A stretch of 64,000 bases of DNA, taken from Deltaproteobacteria bacterium UBA2409. Its GTDB lineage: Bacteria > Bdellovibrionota_C > UBA2361 > DDRT01. Position numbers and translations under genes: made by a program. The stretch covers positions 11,072-75,071 of the forward strand of contig DDRT01000016.1 of assembly GCA_002343185.1 (NCBI GenBank), written 5' to 3'. The notes under the pieces are model-generated. The model was not told where the DNA came from. It saw only the letters and a program-made list of their open reading frames with translations, and searched no databases. Shown in pieces: positions 9,369-62,563 of this stretch. Within the stretch, counting starts at the first letter, position 1. Every line of letters starts with the position of its first letter.

Positions 9369-11338
9369 TTTTGCCAGATGGATGTACCCTCCATGTGTGA
9401 AGATTTCCTAACACCCCACAGACTTAGAATGCTTGGTGCAAGATCTAAAATCGATGGATCGTGTATCTCAAATTTTTTGTTACTTAAGAGAATCCCGGGA
9501 ATTAATTCAGGCGCTATGTGATGATCGCCACTCCAGGCTTTAATGTTGTCAGTGAATACTTCTTCTCCAATTGCTCCAGTTACACATTCCCATGATACTC
9601 TGTAGCCTGGCTTATATCCTAGGATTAGGTCGGGAGCATTTTTAGTGTAAAGGCCTTTGTAAATCTCTTTGGATCGATAGATTTCGTGAAAAACACTTTT
9701 TCCGTTATCTCTGAGCGCTTTTAATTTACCTGCTATCTCTTCTTCAAGCTTCTCACTATCTTCAATTATACCTAAGCGCTCACGTCCTTTTTTATTTATA
9801 TAGATCCCAGTAAGGCCAAGTCCGTAGGCTTTGGTTTTTCCCCAATCTACCCCTTGAAGGTAATCTGTATCTTTCACCCCATCTTTTAAAACCAAATATC
9901 CCTCTTTATGGAGCCAGGCATTTACATGAAATGATCTTCTAAATGAGTCAAACCCATGATCTGAAAGAACTATTAATATATCGTTAGGTTTTAAATCTTT
10001 TTTAGTTTCAGCTATCACCTGATCCATTCTCTTATAGACATTTAGGATCGTATTTTGGAATTTTTCTCTATCTTCAAGTGGAGCAGGGTGATCATTTTCA
10101 GTATATCTCCAGAACATATGTTGTATCCTATCTGTACCGTCAAAGACGCATATAATAAGCCCATCTTTTGTTCTTTTAAGAATATTCCTTAACATCTTTT
10201 CTCGCTCTTCTTCGTTGCTCAAGGCCTGCTTTAGAAATGTCTCATCGTTAAGAGCGAACTCATTTCTTGCCCATGTGTCTTCTAAGAAGCCTAATGTTCC
10301 AAATTTGCCCTGTAGTTTAGAAAGATAACTTCCAAACACTTTTGGAGCACTGACAGGCATTATCTGATTTTCAGGATCGATGTTAATAGGCGATACATAG
10401 ATACTGAGATTCGGTGATATCTCTTGAATGCAAATCTTGCAGATTCCAAGTAAGTTCTTTGAAAATTTTACAGATATCCAGGGAGAAAACTCATGAAGTA
10501 TAAGTTCCCCAGTAAAATCACCCAAAGTTATTTTTACTTTATCACCAATTCTTTCAGCAGTTAGCGATAGTTTTGTTTCAAGTGGACCAAAGACTTGGCC
10601 TGAATATATATTCTGATCAGAATTTATTAATTCTCTGATCTCACCCGAGGTAGCCGATACAATTCTATCTCTGTCAGTAGTAAGAAGCTGAAATGTGCCT
10701 TGAGAGCCTCTTATGTCGGGTGTACACATCGCAGAGAGGATATTTCCGAAAAAAGGCTCAGCTGGAAATGAGATTGGAACTCTTATTACATGTGAGAATA
10801 TTCCGAATTTACCTAAAATATCCCAAAATGGTTTTGATTTGCGGGTCAGCTTATAAAAACTTTTTTTGCCAAATAATGTTTTTTTCTCCTCGATATCGGT
10901 ACTAACTAATTTTGGTAGATAAGTTCTTTGATCTCTTGAAAGAAAATCAAATACATTGTGAGCTCCAGGGTTTACTCCTGTTTGAAAAGAACTCCATGCG
11001 ACAGGAGAAAGAGAAGGGTTGGTGGTTTTAAGAGGAGCAAAGGTTCCTTCATCTCCTAGTTTCTTAAAATTCGGCAGATGCCCTTCGTCGATAAATCGCT
11101 TAGTAAGCCTGTAATCCATCCCATCAAAACCTAAAACTACTACTTTTCTATTTTTACTTTCTTTTGGAAGTTTTCTTCTTCTGATGCTTCTGAGTATTAG
11201 TCGAATGGGAAGAATCAAGATACCGAAAAAAGCACCTATAATTGCTATCAATATCACAGAAGATGAGCCAACGAGTGCAATACCAGCTCCAGGACCAATG
11301 TAGGTAAGAAAAAGTGAGTTGAGAAGCGAATAGAACAT
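9365..11338 (-). CDS. Type I phosphodiesterase / nucleotide pyrophosphatase family protein with an N-terminal membrane anchor
   Basis: VVVLGFDGMDY...SDHGFDSF...SGDHH. Paralog of the gene at 4957..6879. Confidence 0.7.
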   Translation of the reverse strand: MFYSLLNSLFLTYIGPGAGIALVGSSSVILIAIIGAFFGILILPIRLILRSIRRRKLPKESKNRKVVVLGFDGMDYRLTKRFIDEGHLPNFKKLGDEGTFAPLKTTNPSLSPVAWSSFQTGVNPGAHNVFDFLSRDQRTYLPKLVSTDIEEKKTLFGKKSFYKLTRKSKPFWDILGKFGIFSHVIRVPISFPAEPFFGNILSAMCTPDIRGSQGTFQLLTTDRDRIVSATSGEIRELINSDQNIYSGQVFGPLETKLSLTAERIGDKVKITLGDFTGELILHEFSPWISVKFSKNLLGICKICIQEISPNLSIYVSPINIDPENQIMPVSAPKVFGSYLSKLQGKFGTLGFLEDTWARNEFALNDETFLKQALSNEEEREKMLRNILKRTKDGLIICVFDGTDRIQHMFWRYTENDHPAPLEDREKFQNTILNVYKRMDQVIAETKKDLKPNDILIVLSDHGFDSFRRSFHVNAWLHKEGYLVLKDGVKDTDYLQGVDWGKTKAYGLGLTGIYINKKGRERLGIIEDSEKLEEEIAGKLKALRDNGKSVFHEIYRSKEIYKGLYTKNAPDLILGYKPGYRVSWECVTGAIGEEVFTDNIKAWSGDHHIAPELIPGILLSNKKFEIHDPSILDLAPSILSLWGVRKSSHMEGTSIWQN

Positions 11339-11398
11339 GAGTGAAGAAATATTGCATATTTATTACGGAGAGGGGAGAGGTGAGGGTGTTTTCTACTT

Positions 11399-11470
11399 GG
11401 GGGTCAGGCCGGAAGGCCTGACCAGTCAGGTGATAGTGTTTGCCTGGTCAGGCCTTCCGGCCTGACCCCC
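11399..11470. repeat. REP-like palindromic doublet (GGGGGTCAGGCCGGAAGGCCTGACC, then its inverse after a spacer)
   Basis: Two inverted copies of a 22-nt imperfect palindrome, followed by degenerate gcctgac repeats. The same family recurs at 17653 and 62124. Confidence 0.8.
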
Positions 11471-11507
11471 AACAGCCTGACTCCCAAGTAGCCTGACCCT
11501 CAAGATA

Positions 11508-12800
11508 CTAATTTATATACCCCAACGTCTCAAGTTTCTTCATAGTCTCTTCGGGAATTTCCACTGAATCAACTTCGCGCTTTATTGTAGAATTTTTTGC
11601 AGCAGATTTAAGATAATCATACAGCTCATTTTCAAGCGCAGGATCTGTGAGTGGTGAAAACTCAAGCGGATCTTTCACCCTATCAAATAGCCCTCTAGTA
11701 AAATATGATTCACTTTCTTCAAATGGATTCTGTAGGTCAGTGATTAATCTATGGCCATCTGAAACAGAAAAAGCTCGCTGATTGAAGGTTCTATAAACTT
11801 CAGAGTAAACCCCAAGTCTTTTACTAAGAGCATCTTTATCAAGAAGCGATATACCTTGAAGCTTTGTTGGTGGAGTAATTCTAGTTCGCTCTAGAATGGT
11901 TGGAACGATATCGATATGACTTACAGCATATTCAATCACTTCGTTTTTGTTATCTAACTTAATAATTAGGGGAACTAATGTTTCTTCTTGGTGGAGCATT
12001 TTCCCATGTCCTAAAGATCCACGTTCTCGAAACTGCTCTCCGTGATCTGAGACGATATATATATCAGTGTTTTTATATAGATTATTTTCTTTAAGGTACT
12101 CAAAGAATAATTTTAACTGATCGTCTGTATACCTTATCTCACCATCATAGGCTCTAATTACGTTATTTAGCTCAGGGGTATACGTTCTATTTTTAAGATC
12201 TCCTTTAAACATTGTGTCATAAGGGGCTGGTGGCTCGTAAGGATTATGGGGATCAAACAGGAGAGTAAACAAAAAGAAAGGCTCCCCTTTATCCCATGAA
12301 CTAATAAGCTCTCGACTTTTCTTTAGAATAACTTCAGCTTTTGCTTTATAAAAATAATGAAACTCGTCATACCCTTGATCGAAACCAAACTCCTTTGTAA
12401 TCCATGGATTAGAAGAAACAATCCCTGTCTGATACCCAGAATCCTGAAGTAATTCGGAGATTAGAGATAAGTCAGTAGATAAAACGCTTCCTCTATTTAA
12501 TGCTACATTTCTGCTTTGATGTGGTAGATGCCCGTGACCTGATGGATATAGACCTGTCATTATTGAGGCAACAGAGGGTGGAGTCCAGGGTGCAACAGCG
12601 AAAGCTTTTCTAAAATCGAGAAAATTTTTAGCAAGTGAGTCCATGAAAGGAGTTGTCTCTCTTTCATAACCTCTGTATGAAAAATGATCTGCCCGTAAGG
12701 TATCGATCATTATAATTATTACATTTGGTTTTTTAGTGAATCGAGTGTAGGCAAATATAGAAATACCTAAAATTATCAATACTAATGCAATTTTTTTCAT
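11508..12800 (-). CDS. Sulfatase (alkaline phosphatase superfamily), secreted
   Basis: Signal peptide, then NVIIIMIDTLRADHFS (sulfatase N-terminal metal/nucleophile region) and a later SDHGE motif. Confidence 0.7.
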   Translation of the reverse strand: MKKIALVLIILGISIFAYTRFTKKPNVIIIMIDTLRADHFSYRGYERETTPFMDSLAKNFLDFRKAFAVAPWTPPSVASIMTGLYPSGHGHLPHQSRNVALNRGSVLSTDLSLISELLQDSGYQTGIVSSNPWITKEFGFDQGYDEFHYFYKAKAEVILKKSRELISSWDKGEPFFLFTLLFDPHNPYEPPAPYDTMFKGDLKNRTYTPELNNVIRAYDGEIRYTDDQLKLFFEYLKENNLYKNTDIYIVSDHGEQFRERGSLGHGKMLHQEETLVPLIIKLDNKNEVIEYAVSHIDIVPTILERTRITPPTKLQGISLLDKDALSKRLGVYSEVYRTFNQRAFSVSDGHRLITDLQNPFEESESYFTRGLFDRVKDPLEFSPLTDPALENELYDYLKSAAKNSTIKREVDSVEIPEETMKKLETLGYIN

Positions 12801-16315: not shown

Positions 16316-16921
16316 ATGTTAGAGAAATTCAAGGTTACAGATCTCGATTCAAGTATGATTAATGCGGCAGCCCCTTGGGTCATGGTCGAGCGATTACGCG
16401 TTGAAGCCAAAAATAGAGAGATTCTAAAATATGCGATTGAGGCATTTCCTGATGGTGATTTGAAATTATTTACAGATCTATTAGTTGCACGAGCCCTCCT
16501 CTCTACTCAAAGCCTTCCCCGTTGGGCTGAGGTTTTTGATCTTTCCGGAGTCGATTCCACAGTAAGTGGTGCCCAGTTTGAGGATGCCCCAGGAGTAGGA
16601 AGATATTTAGTTGTTCCTGGCGCAGTGGTTTGTCAGATAAAAGAGGGTGAAAACGACGAGTTCGCACTTTTCAATGGGATTAATGATCTTAGAGAAAAGG
16701 TGGGAGAAGGACGAGATTGGATCTTTGACCTGGCATCTGTAAAAAAAGTCTCAACTGGACTACTTGGTTATTTAGTTGGGCTTCAGTCAGAACTGAAGCG
16801 ATCTGACAGAAGAGTTATTCTTCTATGGTTATCAAAGGGGGCTGTTCCAGATCAATTTTTAGAATCTATGAAGAATCGGTTCTCATTACTTAAGAAGGGG
16901 ACATTCTTACTTTCAACTTAG
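16316..16921 (+). CDS. Hypothetical protein with a C-terminal STAS-like domain
   Basis: C-terminal DLASVKKVSTGLLGYLVGL...VILLWLSKG resembles an anti-sigma-antagonist/STAS fold. Confidence 0.4.
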   Translation: MLEKFKVTDLDSSMINAAAPWVMVERLRVEAKNREILKYAIEAFPDGDLKLFTDLLVARALLSTQSLPRWAEVFDLSGVDSTVSGAQFEDAPGVGRYLVVPGAVVCQIKEGENDEFALFNGINDLREKVGEGRDWIFDLASVKKVSTGLLGYLVGLQSELKRSDRRVILLWLSKGAVPDQFLESMKNRFSLLKKGTFLLST

Positions 16922-17604
16922 AAGAGCCATTTCTTTTGATATAGTAGCTTTCTAATCGGGGTCTTAATCACAACTAGCAATAATCCTATCGAGAACAAGC
17001 ACCATACAGCTGGCCACTCGTTCCAGTTATCTGTAGTCATCTTTGCTAAAAGAGGGCCCACAAGTATGTGATAAAGGGTGAATCTCCAGGATCCATAAAG
17101 AATCGGTAAAATAAATGCAGGAATTGCGTAACCTAATCCTACTATTTTAAGACCGTTTAGCGGGATCTCCCACGCTATATGCCATGTTCCGCTAACTGAA
17201 CATGTTCTTGTTCCGCACATAGCATCATTTACCTGAACACATGTTCCGGCCCAATCAAATGGAATTAACCTAAATAGAAAGGTTATAGAGCCGATAAAGC
17301 AGATAGTGTAAACCCAAGGGGTTATCTTCTCTCTCGTTTCTTTATTGATAAAGTGGAGTGAAAACATGTTTATGAAAAATGGCTGAAACGCTATGTGAAA
17401 TGCTCCAAGAAAAGTAAGAACTTGATTTAGGGGGAGATCGCAAAGATTAATTACTGCGTAAGTTACAGCTTGAAGAAGCTCCATTGCAGAAAAGTACGCT
17501 AGGGGAAGCCATAGATTTCTATCTTCTCCTTTTTTTGCAACATATGCTGTGCTTGCTAGCCCAACTGTTGCTAGGACTGCAGATGCCTCACCAGACCAAC
17601 ACAT
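16918..17604 (-). CDS. Integral membrane protein, hypothetical
   Basis: At least five hydrophobic helices. Confidence 0.4.
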   Translation of the reverse strand: MCWSGEASAVLATVGLASTAYVAKKGEDRNLWLPLAYFSAMELLQAVTYAVINLCDLPLNQVLTFLGAFHIAFQPFFINMFSLHFINKETREKITPWVYTICFIGSITFLFRLIPFDWAGTCVQVNDAMCGTRTCSVSGTWHIAWEIPLNGLKIVGLGYAIPAFILPILYGSWRFTLYHILVGPLLAKMTTDNWNEWPAVWCLFSIGLLLVVIKTPIRKLLYQKKWLF

Positions 17605-17652
17605 TTATCTTAAGTAACCGATTTGTGTGGTTTGTCCTAGAGATCATTCTTC

Positions 17653-17725
17653 GGGGGTCAGGTCGGGAGGCCTGACCAGACAAATGCTAGCGTCTGTCTG
17701 GTCAGGCCTCCCGGTCTGACCCCCG
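17653..17725. repeat. REP-like palindromic doublet of the same family as the one at 11399
   Basis: GGGGGTCAGGTCGGGAGGCCTGACC ... GGTCAGGCCTCCCGGTCTGACCCCC, lying just past the ppa stop. Confidence 0.8.
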
Positions 17726-17727
17726 AT

Positions 17728-18336
17728 CTAATATCCTATATATTCTCTATAATCCAAAACAGAAGCCTCTATAATACTTATTGCTTCTTTTTGCCCATAG
17801 ATCTCCTCAATCTTGACCGGATTTTTCGTTTCACCAGGAGCAAGTTTATAAGTCATAAAGTAATGCTTTAGTCTGTCTAAGATTGAGCCTGGTAGATCCT
17901 CAATCGAAGCAGTGTTGTAATATGCGCCGTCTCCATCAAGAACTCCTAAAAGCTTATCGTCAGCTTCTCCTTTGTCTATGATTCTAATTCCACCAATTGG
18001 TCTTGCTTTTAAAAGAATATTTCCATGGACAATCGGACGTTCTGTAATCACACAGAAATCTAAAGGGTCACCATCTCCTTTAGTAGCTGCTTTTGAAAAT
18101 GAAGCAACCTTATCTCCACTGTAAGTTTTTGGGAGAAATCCATATGGTGCAGGGCAATAGTTTGAGAATCTTTGAGGTCGATCGATCTTAAGAAGACCGG
18201 AGTCTTTGTCTATTTCGTATTTCATTACATCTGTTGGAATAACCTCAACAAACACTACAACTTCGCTTGGAAATTTTTTACTTTGCTCTACTCCGTGCCA
18301 TGGGTGTGCTACGGAGCTAGGATTTTTGGTTCCCAT
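17728..18336 (-). CDS. ppa: Inorganic pyrophosphatase (family I)
   Basis: HPWHG, VVVFVEVIP and KYEIDKDSG match the PPase signature region. Confidence 0.9.
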   Translation of the reverse strand: MGTKNPSSVAHPWHGVEQSKKFPSEVVVFVEVIPTDVMKYEIDKDSGLLKIDRPQRFSNYCPAPYGFLPKTYSGDKVASFSKAATKGDGDPLDFCVITERPIVHGNILLKARPIGGIRIIDKGEADDKLLGVLDGDGAYYNTASIEDLPGSILDRLKHYFMTYKLAPGETKNPVKIEEIYGQKEAISIIEASVLDYREYIGY

Positions 18337-20530: not shown

Positions 20531-21231
20531 TGGCTGATGGATCCAGAGGAAAAGCGAGAAAACATCTAAATGAGAGGCTTGCTGCGCTTCATCAAAGGGC
20601 AATGCAGATTGAGGAGCAGTTAAAGAACCTTGATTCATGCAGATTTTATAGGGCATGTATATTTGGAAGTGCAAGAATCAAGGGTGATTCAGAGGAGTAC
20701 AATGAAGCATTTGAGCTTGCCAGATATTTTGCTTGGGCGGGGATTGATGTTTTAACTGGTGGCGGACATGGGTTGATGGAAGCTGCAAATAAAGGAGCTC
20801 AGTTAGGTAGGAGTGAGCAAAAAACAAAGAGCCTTTCCTTTGGAATTTCAATACAACTACCACATGAGCCTGAGCCAAATATGCATCTTGATATTAAGAG
20901 GCATCACTATAAATTTTCTTCAAGGCTTGATGATTTTATAAGATTATCTAATGCGATAGTTTGTTTGCCTGGAGGAATTGGGACTCTCTTAGAGCTTGCA
21001 TTTTCCTGGCAGTTAATTCAGGTCAAGCACATAAAGCCAAGACCACTCATATTGCTGGATAAAATGTTTTGGGGAGGATTTATCGATTGGATGAAGGGCG
21101 AAGTTCTTACAAGGTCACTTGTTTCTCAGCATGACTTTGATTCGATTGTGATTGTAGATACCCCTCAGGAAGCCTTTGAGGTTGTGAGTAAGGATTTTGA
21201 AGGATGGAGAAAGGTTTGTGAGATAGGGTAG
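20527..21231 (+). CDS. LOG-family protein (TIGR00730 Rossmann fold; nucleotide 5'-monophosphate nucleosidase-like)
   Basis: ACIFGSAR...DVLTGGGHGLMEAANKGA...PGGIGTLLEL: the GGGxGxMxA and PGGxGTxxE motifs of the LOG family. Confidence 0.8.
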   Translation: MMADGSRGKARKHLNERLAALHQRAMQIEEQLKNLDSCRFYRACIFGSARIKGDSEEYNEAFELARYFAWAGIDVLTGGGHGLMEAANKGAQLGRSEQKTKSLSFGISIQLPHEPEPNMHLDIKRHHYKFSSRLDDFIRLSNAIVCLPGGIGTLLELAFSWQLIQVKHIKPRPLILLDKMFWGGFIDWMKGEVLTRSLVSQHDFDSIVIVDTPQEAFEVVSKDFEGWRKVCEIG

Positions 21232-21267
21232 GGTACTACTGAATTGATAAAACGCGCCTTGGCGCCT

Positions 21268-22512
21268 ACATGGAGGGGGGCTACTTTTATTCATAAACCT
21301 CCTTGTATTGTTAAATCTTGGATTAACGTAAGAGACATTAGTGCTCAACTATAGTGAAGTGGGTTTTAGTTTTTAGAGAGGCTTTGTTTGCGCCTTGGAG
21401 TTGGTGCAAATTACCTAATTGAAGGCCTTTAGTATAATCCTAGATACTTAACTAGGAACCTTTGTAATGATTTATATATTAAGAAAGAACAGACAATTCT
21501 GGTCTAATCATATTGATAGCTCTTGGCAGGGTAGGTAAAAACACGCCCGGTGGAAATTCCAAATGGAAGCCTTTTCGAACGGCTTGATATGCCTGCTTGG
21601 CCTGTTCTACTAGTGAACGATAAAAACTAATGAATCTTTTTCTAAGTTTCGGGATTGTGGATAGGCAGATCGTTCTTCTGCCAAATGCCTTTGGAATATA
21701 TGGCCTTCTTAGGCTCTCTCTTTGTGAAGACACAATTTTTATAGGCTCAAGCCGTGAAAGATAAATATTAATTCTATCTTGAATCTTTTTTAGCACATCC
21801 AGATCCGACATTCGAGCAGTGTTTGCAAAGCAGTCCTTAAACGAAAGAAGATCTACTTCTAAATCGATCTCATGGTTGTTTAGATCAAGCAGCCGAGCAC
21901 TCTTTTCTTTTTCTTCTTTCCATGGCTTATCTGGGTCATTTAAGGGACTTATTGAGCTTCTTGCAATTGCTACACACTTTCTTTTGTTTACCTGAAAGCT
22001 TGAGACCCCTCTATAAGACTCAATACTACTTGACAGCTTATCTTTTACTGGATTCGTTAAAATATAGGCTATTCGATTAAATATCTCCTCCGAGTCTAAT
22101 ACTACTGGAGAATCGTATCCTTCTTCCCAAATCGTCTTCTTCCTTCTACCGAGAAGCCTATTAATCCCATGCGCAGTCTCTTGTTTTACGTATCCCACAA
22201 AGCCACAAAAATCCTCGGGATTTATTACTTTCAGTAACATATGAAAATGATTAGTAGAAAAGCAAAAACAGATTATATCTACAGGATACAACTCTTTCGC
22301 CTTAGCTAGTGATGACCAGATAATCAAATTAACAAAAGAATAGGGCAGAAGTGGTAGCCCTTCTTCCGTTCTCGATGTCACCATCACTATATCGCGATTC
22401 CTATACACCTTTCTTAAACGAGGCATATTATTCCTATCGCAATATCTACGATTTTGTTTACTACAAAAGTAGCCCCCCTCCAGCCACTACGGCCCCCCTC
22501 CAGCCACTACGC
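21268..22512 (-). mobile_element. IS200/RAYT-like element: a Y1 (HuH) transposase gene flanked by inverted hairpin repeats
   Basis: Left flank acatGGAGGGGGGCTACtttt at ~21268-21295. Right flank aaaaGTAGCCCCCCTCCagccactacg at ~22455-22492, whose 20-mer is tandemly duplicated to 22512. The two flanks are reverse complements of each other. Confidence 0.65.
21479..22426 (-). CDS. Y1 HuH transposase (IS200/IS605 / REP-associated tyrosine transposase-like) with a C-terminal extension
   Basis: HuH motif STNHFHMLLKV and the catalytic Tyr region RIAYILTNPVKDKL. The 315-aa length exceeds typical RAYTs. Confidence 0.7.
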   Translation of the reverse strand: MPRLRKVYRNRDIVMVTSRTEEGLPLLPYSFVNLIIWSSLAKAKELYPVDIICFCFSTNHFHMLLKVINPEDFCGFVGYVKQETAHGINRLLGRRKKTIWEEGYDSPVVLDSEEIFNRIAYILTNPVKDKLSSSIESYRGVSSFQVNKRKCVAIARSSISPLNDPDKPWKEEKEKSARLLDLNNHEIDLEVDLLSFKDCFANTARMSDLDVLKKIQDRINIYLSRLEPIKIVSSQRESLRRPYIPKAFGRRTICLSTIPKLRKRFISFYRSLVEQAKQAYQAVRKGFHLEFPPGVFLPTLPRAINMIRPELSVLS

Positions 22513-22927
22513 GGCGTAGCTTCAAGTTTTACAAAAACAATTTGTCTTGGAGATCTAGTTTGTTTCATTCAGCGACGTATGTTTTTTTTTGAGCAGCTTC
22601 ATTTTTAAGCCATTAGCCCCATTACTTTCGATGTGAAAATAGAGAGGCAACTGTCCCCATTCACACCTAAAGATATTTGCAGATTTCAAAGAGAGTGAAC
22701 ATATTTAGAGCCACCCTCCTTTGGAGATCTCTAATACTTAATTATCCACATGTTTTCAAATACTTATAAAATATTAGAAAATTTATTTTTAAAGGAGTCT
22801 GGTTCCAGAATTCACTCCTCTTCCAATCAAACTCTTTTACTTTCATATACCTACGTAGAGGACTATGATTTATGCATGCTTCGAGTTAGGCTCTCACTAA
22901 TAATTTTAGGTTCCTGTAAAATAATTT

Positions 22928-60858: not shown

Positions 60859-61379
60859 ACCCAGCTGCTCTTGAGGCTATATTATTCTCCACTGGTGAAG
60901 TTGTAACCATAGAACAGCTTACATCTGTGTTCGAAGTGACAGAAGAAGAAGTAAAATCAGCTTTAGATGAGCTAGCAAGAAATATCTCAGAAAGAAACGG
61001 TGGCGTTGAACTGTTAAAGGTAAATAAAGGGTATCAGCTCAGAACTAAACCAGAATTTGCCGAGATAATCTTAAAACTGCGAGAGCAAAAACCTAGAAAA
61101 CTTAGTAATGCAAGTCTTGAAACACTTGCGGTTGTCGCTTACAGGCAACCTGTTACTAAACATGATATCGACACAATTAGAGGGGTTGATGTAGGGCCAA
61201 CATTAAAGACTTTACTTGAAAGAGAGTTAGTTGAAGTTATTGGCCATAAGCCTACCGTTGGAAATCCATCTCTTTATGCTACTACTGATAAGTTTCTAGA
61301 ACTTTTTGGAATTAACTCACTCTCAGAACTTCCTAACTTAAGAGAAGTAAGGGAGATCGAAGAGAATGAGCTCGGTTAG
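60855..61379 (+). CDS. scpB: Segregation and condensation protein B
   Basis: LEAILF...GEVVTIEQL ... SLETLAVVAYRQPVTKHDIDTIRGV: ScpB winged-helix repeats. Confidence 0.8.
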   Translation: MNPAALEAILFSTGEVVTIEQLTSVFEVTEEEVKSALDELARNISERNGGVELLKVNKGYQLRTKPEFAEIILKLREQKPRKLSNASLETLAVVAYRQPVTKHDIDTIRGVDVGPTLKTLLERELVEVIGHKPTVGNPSLYATTDKFLELFGINSLSELPNLREVREIEENELG

Positions 61380-62094
61380 ACTTCAAAAATATCTATCAGA
61401 AGCTGGAGTTGCCTCAAGACGCGCAGCAGAAGAGCTAATTACTGCTGGTAAGGTAAGAGTTAACGAAAGAGTTGTAACTAAACTAGGAACTACTGTTGAT
61501 CCAATAAAAGACGTAGTTAGAGTAAGAAATAAGATCGTAAAACCTGCAAAAAAAGGACTGATTCTTTTTCACAAGCCAAAAGGGGTTGTTTCAACAATGA
61601 GTGATCCTGAAGGGCGGCCTTGCTTAGCTGATTATCTAACCAAGCACTATCGATCCTACTTTCCTGTTGGAAGACTCGATTACGATTCAACTGGACTTCT
61701 GATATTAACAAATGATGGTGAGCTCGCTGAAAGACTGCTGCACCCACGCTTTGGAGCAGAAAGAGTTTACGAAGTTAGAGTTGCTGGGGTTATAAGGGAG
61801 CAGGATCTAAAAAAACTTTCTAGAGGCGTTAGACTAGAGGATGGTGTTGTTAAAGCAAATGCAGAGCTAATATCAAGCGATAGAGATTCGTCCTGGCTAA
61901 AAGTAAAGATCTCCGAGGGAAGAAACAGAGTGATAAGGAGAATGATGGAGAAACTTCATCATCCAGTTCTAAAACTCAAAAGAATTTCTCATGGGCCAAT
62001 TCAGATCGGTAAAATCAAGATCGGTGAGATTAGAGCTCTATCGGAAAGAGAGTATCAAGGTTTGCGCAATACAGTGCTAGGTAGAAGAGTTTAG
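61366..62094 (+). CDS. rluB: Ribosomal large-subunit pseudouridine synthase (RsuA/RluB family) with an S4 domain
   Basis: S4 domain RLQKYLSEAGVASRR and the catalytic region HKPKGVVST...GRLDYDSTGLLILTNDG. Confidence 0.8.
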   Translation: MSSVRLQKYLSEAGVASRRAAEELITAGKVRVNERVVTKLGTTVDPIKDVVRVRNKIVKPAKKGLILFHKPKGVVSTMSDPEGRPCLADYLTKHYRSYFPVGRLDYDSTGLLILTNDGELAERLLHPRFGAERVYEVRVAGVIREQDLKKLSRGVRLEDGVVKANAELISSDRDSSWLKVKISEGRNRVIRRMMEKLHHPVLKLKRISHGPIQIGKIKIGEIRALSEREYQGLRNTVLGRRV

Positions 62095-62123
62095 AGTTCG
62101 GGTGGCACTTCGTTTTTTTACTT

Positions 62124-62151
62124 GGGGGTCAGGCCGGCAGGCCTGACCCCC
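62124..62151. repeat. Single REP-like palindrome (GGGGGTCAGGCCGGCAGGCCTGACCCCC)
   Basis: Same family as the elements at 11399 and 17653. Lies 30 bp past the rluB stop. Confidence 0.8.
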
Positions 62152-62160
62152 AAGCTAACA

Positions 62161-62489: not shown

Positions 62490-62563
<74 letters not shown>

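Follow-up and report, generated by a model that had tools for sequence, protein, structure and literature searches.

A RAYT-like Y1 gene between GTAG-tagged inverted repeats: a candidate TIRtron-type unit in a Bdellovibrionota_C genome

The window analyzed here—64 kb of contig DDRT01000016.1 from Deltaproteobacteria bacterium UBA2409, and the scope of all within-window repeat counts below—carries on the minus strand, at 21479–22426, a gene for a 315-amino-acid (aa) Y1 HUH protein of class 2, RAYT-like and TIRYT-like, set between two copies of a short inverted repeat. The gene is defined by its open reading frame, by Pfam and NCBIfam matches, by 98 full-length homologues, and by an AlphaFold (AF2) model. 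We favor, with moderate confidence, reading the locus as a TIRtron-type unit in which the repeats serve the enzyme as its own cis sites; in a TIRtron, terminal inverted repeats take the place of repetitive extragenic palindromes (REPs) on either side of a RAYT-like gene (Di Nocera et al. 2013, PMC3733652).

The catalytic motifs place the protein among Y1 enzymes. An earlier note on this DNA had identified a 315-aa Y1 enzyme by the motifs HFHMLL and YILTNPV; translation of the reading frame puts these at aa 60–65 and aa 121–127, and the protein scores 28 bits against Pfam Y1_Tnp (cut-off 23), which bears the identification out. The N-terminal catalytic core (aa 1–139; 22010–22426, minus strand), delimited by family conservation, Foldseek, and hhalign, contains the HuH motif N59-H60-F-H62 (nucleotides (nt) 22241–22249) and the catalytic Tyr121 (nt 22064–22066), both assigned by family conservation, and is followed by a YPGVSSW-type tail motif at aa 138–144. 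Among 5.8 billion proteins we found 98 relatives, most of them 305–350 aa long with 97% query coverage, so the C-terminal half is a family feature. Across this family (median length 325 aa) the HuH motif is NHFH, the tyrosine motif is Y[IL]Y[LT]NP (N in 93%, P in 89%), and the catalytic HuH and Tyr residues are kept in 98–100% of members. In an alignment of 81 sequences, N59, H60, H62, W100, Y121, N125, S143, R156, W196, F200, P245, R262, W283, G286, P292, G294, and P298 are invariant or nearly so.

Structure and profile comparisons gave the same order of relatives. The AF2 model of the protein (mean predicted local distance difference test score 92.6; predicted template-modeling score, pTM, 0.89) matched E. 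coli TnpA_REP with its bound REP hairpin (4er8_A) best among Protein Data Bank (PDB) structures in Foldseek (E 4e-7, target template-modeling score 0.75, root-mean-square deviation (rmsd) 2.1), whereas the IS608 and ISDra2 TnpA enzymes ranked behind it (E ~5e-4, rmsd 5–9); a profile search of PDB sequences likewise placed TnpA_REP first, aligning the protein to 4er8 without a large gap. Against the comparison set of TIRYT and RAYT sequences (Additional file 5 of Di Nocera et al. 2013, PMC3733652), the family hidden Markov model scored 23 TIRYTs at 25–64 bits and the E. coli RAYT at 24.7 bits, and hhalign aligned the family core with the TIRYT alignment over 138 core columns (probability 99.2%, E 1.5e-19). 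NCBIfam REP_Tyr_transpos scored the protein at 54.8 bits, under its equivalog cut-off of 80. By these profiles the catalytic core resembles RAYTs, with the TIRYT group as its nearest relatives; as modeled, it is closest among solved structures to E. coli TnpA_REP. The earlier assignment to the RAYT family was thus upheld: Motif evidence supports a Y1 HUH enzyme of the RAYT branch, with YxxxNP in place of the YxxxQ of IS200 (PMC6006769 Table 1), and TnpA_REP is its best solved-structure match.

The same scores bear on the proposal that the gene belongs to an ordinary IS200/IS605 insertion sequence (IS), which we regard as highly improbable. The Pfam Y1_Tnp match and the many family members found on 1.1–2-kb contigs would suit such an element. 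Yet the tyrosine motif is of the other type and the NCBIfam transpos_IS200 model reaches 17 bits with a cut-off of 55, so that, at the level of motifs and models, IS200/IS605 identity is already contradicted; the protein has 315 aa rather than ~150, DNA folding of both strands finds no subterminal hairpins at either flank, and the gene is single copy in long contigs, with no plasmid or viral matches.

Beyond the core lies a family-specific C-terminal region (aa 140–315; 21482–22009, minus strand). The earlier note had noticed a C-terminal extension of ~150 aa; the extension exists and is conserved across 129 sequence clusters, although its length is ~175 aa. An exhaustive phmmer search of 1.8 billion representatives confined it to proteins of the same ~300–340-aa architecture or fragments of them (the same 129 clusters), leaving it without detectable relatives outside the family. 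No Pfam model matched it in any of the members examined (0/81), and Foldseek returned no match for it in PDB or BFVD. Modeled alone it reached a pTM of 0.51, vs. 0.89 for the whole protein, which suggests that the region packs against the core instead of folding as an independent domain.

The flanks of the gene carry the second element of the putative unit. As the earlier note had described, the gene lies between reverse-complement sequences: A perfect inverted repeat, complementary at 18 of 18 positions, brackets it at 21271–21288 and 22465–22482. The downstream copy, recovered by inverted-repeat search, reads AAAAGTAGCCCCCCTCCA on the gene's sense strand and lies 190 nt past the stop codon; the inner copy reads TGGAGGGGGGCTACTTTT on that strand, lies 38 nt before the ATG, and is kept in orthologues although the neighboring DNA has diverged. 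The tandem duplication of one repeat, likewise described before, is present on the promoter side as two 20-nt units, GCCCCCCTCCAGCCACTACG, at 22472–22511, the outer of which contains a partial 11-nt repeat copy at 22492–22502. Directly downstream of the inner repeat, the 5' leader (22427–22464, minus strand) holds a motif with promoter-like spacing, TAAACAAA-N14-TGCGATAGGA, which the alignment of upstream regions from nine loci suggests as the gene's promoter. At the other end, a 190-nt 3' spacer (21289–21478, minus strand), whose length but not sequence is kept across the family, separates the stop codon from the downstream repeat. Just outside that repeat, sequence and fold reveal a short GC-rich hairpin (21254–21265); on the minus strand it reads GCGCC-AA-GGCGC and runs into GTTTTAT. 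With a T-run behind it on the gene's strand, it is most simply, and probably, the gene's terminator.

The repeats themselves do not fold. They contain no palindrome, although a GTAG tag is present, and both flanks on both strands gave DNA-fold z scores of +0.35 to −0.83 relative to shuffled sequence; with no fold beyond the shuffled level, the two copies of the flanking 13-mer form an inverted repeat spanning 1.2 kb, not hairpins of their own. The earlier description of the flanks as hairpin repeats in a REPIN-like arrangement was therefore not supported. A small GC hairpin does stand just outside each of the two repeat copies in the window; we considered it as a hidden REP and rejected it as a family feature, as it is not conserved in other loci. 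Searches of the window found no further copy. The 18-mer with up to three mismatches occurs only as the two flanking copies; the 13-mer with up to two mismatches has three matches where 0.5 would be expected, namely both flanking copies and a 2-mismatch match at 1683 that looks like chance; and the degenerate motif TGGAG-N5-CTACT with one mismatch is elsewhere at chance level.

That degenerate motif is the site common to the whole family, present even in homologues of only 34% identity. Its complementary strand reads AGTAG-N5-CTCCA and so contains GTAG, the tetranucleotide by which RAYT substrates are tagged and which, in TnpA_REP, guides recognition and the choice of cleavage site (PMC8266576). 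In the 81% and 77% orthologues (L004 and L005), nucleotide similarity to the window ends at the stop codon and just above the inner repeat, and the flanking repeat is the sole conserved island outside the gene. The downstream copy lies on the gene's sense strand in 8/8 loci (the window, L004, L005, L121, L150, L152, L160, and L161), at +153 to +231 from the stop codon. Promoter-side copies lie at −38 to −200, mostly inverted and just upstream of the promoter-like motif, which in the nine aligned upstream regions follows the inner copy as (T)AAACAAA-N13-14-GCGATA; tandem arrays occur there in the window, L004, and L160. The inverted-flank arrangement was found again in L004, L005, L121, L150, L160, and L161.

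More distant loci keep the design with other cores. In four loci at 34–40% identity (L150, L152, L160, and L161), GTAG/GTGG-N6-TCCA recurs at +204 to +231 with lineage-specific cores: The site is AGTAGGGTGGCTCCA in L150, AGTAGCCCGGC(T/A)CCA in L152 and L160, and GGTGGGTGGTTCCA in L161, and L150, L160, and L161 have an inverted promoter-side partner with matching core. Strict covariation of the N5 core with the protein phylogeny was considered and rejected, the correlation being only partial. A further 40%-identity homologue, L121 (JGI Ga0136611_10216066, 1–1300), came by chance from a 16-mer metagenome scan, in which it was the only true relative among the matches listed (at least 120), the known JGI contig also not being among the matches listed. 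In L121 the 18-mer recurs unchanged upstream, and GTAGGCCCCCTCCA lies 202 nt past the stop. The gene there lacks the first ~60 codons, including the HuH motif, and has no start codon, while both flanking repeats are retained; from its sequence it looks like a decaying or nonautonomous derivative. Its upstream repeat lies ~50 nt from the truncation point.

Two observations concern the spacing and the surroundings of these sites. The distance from stop codon to downstream repeat is held at 153–231 nt down to 34% identity (window plus seven loci); over the same interval, window 21289–21478 and its equivalents in the seven loci, we found no conserved sequence, no notable open reading frame, and no signal of structured RNA (z −1.6 to +2.1). 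In the 34%-identity homologue of L152 (8827–11294) and L153 (JGI 3300036355 / 3300036184), two copies of GTAGCCCGGCTCCA face the same way, one 1174 nt before the gene and the other 204 nt past it; the opposite-strand 351-aa gene enclosed by this pair matches the PADLOC candidate defense family PDC-S11 (E 1e-18), and a CRISPR array beside type I-F-like cas genes has its first repeat ~50 nt from the downstream copy. Genomic contexts of the distant homologues are mutually unrelated.

Copy number bears on whether these sites belong to a dispersed repeat family. Were the locus a classical REPtron, its flanking repeats would be part of a dispersed REP/REPIN family mobilized by the enzyme, a possibility we consider improbable. 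The inverted orientation and the GTAG tag agree with it, as does the way in which the Logan contig L004 ends exactly at the repeats and in which sister-species contigs and an ENA assembly break there, as at multicopy sequence. Such breaks have other possible causes, including tandem arrays and strain variation, and the repeats have neither palindrome nor fold. We found no extra copies in the window (up to three mismatches) and no extra copies of the loci's own motif in the 20-kb flanks of L149, L150, L152, L160, and L161, which likewise leaves the REPIN-like description of the flanks unsupported. A 17-mer scan of species-representative genomes gave 23 single matches in unrelated taxa, none beside a homologue and in no matched genome clustered, with the source locus not among the matches; lacking that positive control, the scan does not speak to the source genome.

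The gene itself behaves as a resident of its genome. It is present identically and in the same context, as one copy, inside 128-, 77-, and 131-kb contigs of NCBI, JGI, and ENA assemblies, two of which match the window at every base over 20.9 kb. Its GC content (0.37–0.40) equals that of its surroundings (0.35–0.45); because composition and context agree in this way, the unit looks resident rather than recently acquired. Searches for plasmid and viral relatives found none. Judged from sequence, copy number, context, composition, and the lack of plasmid or viral relatives together are the behavior of a RAYT-type gene and not of an IS; RAYT genes in general act like housekeeping genes (PMC5581495).

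The edges of the unit are less regular. In six Logan contigs from two sister species (L154–L159; LOG protein identity 92% and 89%, three samples each), the sequence runs out 48 or 31 nt past the stop codon of the neighboring LOG gene, which is where the repeat begins in the window (21231–21271). The cupin gene on the opposite side has no orthologue above 75% identity; with the contigs ending on the LOG side, this would place the unit at a synteny break. The ENA contig ERZ761607 NODE_179 (L003, 131 kb) equals the window to 7 nt past the downstream repeat. Its positions 11157–11218 correspond to window 21264 followed by 21373–21428, the last 55 nt being an aberrant second copy of the gene's 3' spacer; the junction falls at microhomology AGGC, and the contig ends 62 nt past the repeat. 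This junction could be a tandem duplication, a circle junction, or a chimeric contig tip. The boundary signs in L004, L154–L159, and L003 hint at repeated or polymorphic sequence there; mobility, strain variation, or assembly artifacts could each account for them.

Residence invites a further explanation, that of a domesticated host gene whose repeats are operators or mRNA elements and whose protein has a nontransposition role in single-strand DNA processing; the promoter-side and 3' copies would then serve autoregulation or pairing of the transcript's 5' and 3' ends. We think this unlikely, if more credible than a classical REPtron. Single copy number in contigs, composition like the surroundings, a stable context, and the housekeeping-like conduct of RAYT genes at large speak for it; so do the placement of the repeats, with upstream copies abutting the conserved promoter-like motif and the 3' copy inside the transcribed 3' region ahead of the terminator-like hairpin, and the recurrence of tandem units at ~20–30-nt periods. 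Against it stand the retention of HuH and Tyr in 98–100% of members, the GTAG tag as a known RAYT substrate signature, the 5'-truncated pseudogene copy L121 with both of its repeats, and contexts that differ wholly between lineages.

As the earlier note had claimed, the window also holds a second, unrelated family of palindromic repeats. It is made up of two 76-nt doublets and one hairpin. These GGGGGTCAGGCC elements are genuine REPIN-like hairpins placed after stop codons, each 2–36 nt past one, with DNA-fold z scores of −9 to −12. The first, at 11397–11510, consists of a GGGGGTCAGGCCGGAAGGCCTGACC inverted doublet (11397–11472; fold −40.5 kcal/mol, z −11.3) and two degenerate tandem half-units, and begins right after the stop codon of a gene ending at 11508. 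The second, a 76-nt inverted doublet at 17651–17726 (z −11.7), lies 2 nt after the stop codon of the minus-strand gene 17728–18336, and the third, a single perfect hairpin at 62121–62154 (z −9.1), lies 27 nt after the stop codon of the plus-strand gene 61366–62094. The elements are not in the orthologous intergenic region of the sister species (L154 and L157).

We considered whether the Y1 enzyme acts in trans on this REPIN-like family, the repeats flanking its gene being diverged relatives of it. Several features lend this some appeal: GGGGTCAG, within the GGGGGTCAGGCC elements, fits the TIRYT repeat consensus GGGGWSAS (PMC3733652) and the enzyme core is TIRYT-like; the gene is the sole Y1 gene in the window; and there is a loose by-eye resemblance between TGGAGGGGGGCTACTT and the reverse complement of 11488–11505, TTGAGGGTCAGGCTACTT. 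That resemblance requires a 2-nt gap, however, and could be chance between G-rich strings; moreover, no GGGGTCAGG element occurs near any homologue of the gene, the gene's own flanks hold no GGGGWSAS pair, and the site conserved across the family is TGGAG-N5-CTACT. We give trans action low odds. On sequence grounds a further TIRYT-type gene, located elsewhere in the genome, may be the partner of the GGGGGTCAGGCC family, no second Y1 gene being present in the window; its elements are less likely to be trans substrates of the present enzyme.

Further observations adjoin these elements. The degenerate half-units directly 3' of the first doublet (11473–11510), GCCTGACTCCCAA and GTAGCCTGACCCTCAA, resemble the tandem repeat-core arrays beside the Y1 gene. 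In L154 (1–60), 131 nt after a sulfatase stop, GCCTCCCGGCCTGAATCCC resembles one arm of the second window REPIN (GCCTCCCGGTCTGACCCCC, 17700–17726). A DUF5765 gene of 228 aa (16918–17604, minus strand) adjoins that same REPIN (17651–17726); it is missing in L154 and replaced by a 340-aa gene in L157; the DNA next to the REPIN is thus variable over a short stretch. The single hairpin at 62121–62154 has a tRNA gene (Rfam 60 bits; 62490–62563, minus strand) ~340 nt away.

For the TIRtron-type unit, we propose the following course, whose mechanistic steps—binding, GTAG-guided nicking, mobilization, and autoregulation—we infer from the chemistry of the family. A single-copy gene would supply a class-2 Y1 HUH single-strand DNA endonuclease/transposase fused to the ~175-aa C-terminal region. 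Its putative cis site is a 15–18-nt bipartite motif, TGGAG-N5-CTACT(TTT), GTAG-tagged on the opposite strand, with one copy ~200 nt past the stop codon and at least one inverted copy directly upstream of the promoter-like motif. By analogy with TnpA_REP, the enzyme would bind these sites with GTAG as a guide or recognition element, and Tyr121 would nick near them. Nicking might allow, or might once have allowed, excision and reinsertion of the 1.24-kb unit or of deleted derivatives, and occupation of the promoter-side copies could render the gene autoregulated.

Several results weigh against this reading. GGGGWSAS is present in the majority of published TIRYT repeats (PMC3733652), whereas the repeat here is TGGAG-N5-CTACT, GTAG-tagged; near the gene the published consensus has a single match, at 22651, with no inverted partner. 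The C-terminal ~175 aa have no helix-turn-helix (HTH) or Bac_DnaA_C signature, as no HTH Pfam model (Bac_DnaA_C, HTH_23, HTH_28) matched in the 81 members (0/81). Comparison of the extension with RAYT-type groups, as the earlier note had advised, showed no homology to the TIRYT HTH tail (hhalign probability 9.6%). Not every locus has the inverted orientation: The upstream copies in L149 are direct, and in L152 a direct copy 1174 nt upstream encloses the opposite-strand 351-aa gene. A consensus promoter scan made no call at the 22427–22464 motif, and we saw neither an empty site nor a transposition footprint.

A more far-reaching account, which we entertain only tentatively, would make the family an undescribed class-2 Y1 HUH subclass. 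Where RAYT and IS200 enzymes read hairpins, its ~175-aa region would recognize a linear, bipartite, GTAG-tagged site, TGGAG-N5-CTACT; together with the repeats and a 3' spacer fixed at ~200 nt, the gene would make up a unit complete in itself, of very low copy number, that moves or recombines. The truncated copy L121, the defense-like gene enclosed in L152, the recurrent assembly breaks, and the odd boundary junction are the possible signs from which this account is drawn.

The textbook example of a domesticated bacterial transposase is the RAYT-like enzyme. For the REP-less branches—the TIRYTs and subclasses 2.1 and 2.3—we know of no established substrate logic or function. The present family offers a conserved, testable enzyme–site pair, with a short linear GTAG-tagged site, a lineage-variable 5-nt core, and a large domain that has no fold match. 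If this pairing were confirmed, it would show Y1 enzymes reading sites that lack hairpins and could mark an intermediate between inverted-repeat-bounded elements and REP/REPIN systems. For now the locus adds incrementally to a class already known rather than founding a new kind of system, and is of interest to specialists in HUH enzymes.

Comparison with described systems locates the unit within this landscape. The IS200/IS605 TnpA enzymes (IS608, ISDra2) share the HUH/Tyr fold and the expected single-strand DNA chemistry; they differ in the Y motif, in their subterminal hairpins, in being multicopy, which the present gene is not in long contigs, and in consisting of the core only (~150 aa vs. 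315 aa here), with much weaker structural and profile matches. E. coli TnpA_REP and its REPtron (PDB 4ER8; Messing 2012; Corneloup 2021, PMC8266576) are nearer: Beyond the best solved-structure match and the shared YxxxNP, both systems have GTAG in the cis site, inverted flanks, and single-copy status. Here, however, no palindromic stem-loop stands beside the GTAG, no dispersed family was detected in the window or in the 20-kb flanks of the five homologous loci, and the protein is twice as long, scoring 54.8 against the NCBIfam equivalog cut-off of 80. The GGGGGTCAGGCC elements compare instead with REPINs (Bertels & Rainey 2011, PMC3116915), with two inverted units and a short spacer forming one long hairpin, extragenic positions just past stop codons, and several copies in 64 kb; unlike REPINs, they do not consistently have the GTAG tag and have no adjacent RAYT within the window.

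Subclass 2.3 of TnpA_Y1 (Quentin et al. 2018, PMC6006769) resembles the family in its median of 325 aa, its lack of REPs, and its long subclass-specific C-terminal tail. Its motifs, however, are NHYH and YVDLNP, and a conserved insertion of 55 aa separates its beta3 from alphaC; in the present family the corresponding motifs read NHFH and Y[IL]Y[LT]NP, and in the model beta3 (aa 60–66) nearly abuts the helix at aa 70–91. Membership in subclass 2.3 was rejected because the core insertion is absent and the motifs differ. The TIRYTs, largely equivalent to subclass 2.1 (Quentin et al. 2018) and to Group 1 RAYTs (Bertels et al. 2017), share with the present family the arrangement of a RAYT-like Y1 gene between non-REP terminal inverted repeats, low copy number, a homologous core (hhalign 99.2%) with a C-terminal extension beyond it, and motifs of one type (NH[YF]H, W-E, YxxxNP, and an SS tail); they are shorter, at a median of 238 aa vs. 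325 aa. The kind of arrangement thus already has a name, TIRtron, and since the family has neither the repeat and HTH of subclass 2.1 nor the insertion and motifs of subclass 2.3, we file it as a variant within class-2 TnpA_Y1. What is new is the combination of a GTAG-tagged TGGAG-N5-CTACT repeat with a large C-terminal region that is not an HTH and has no detectable relatives.

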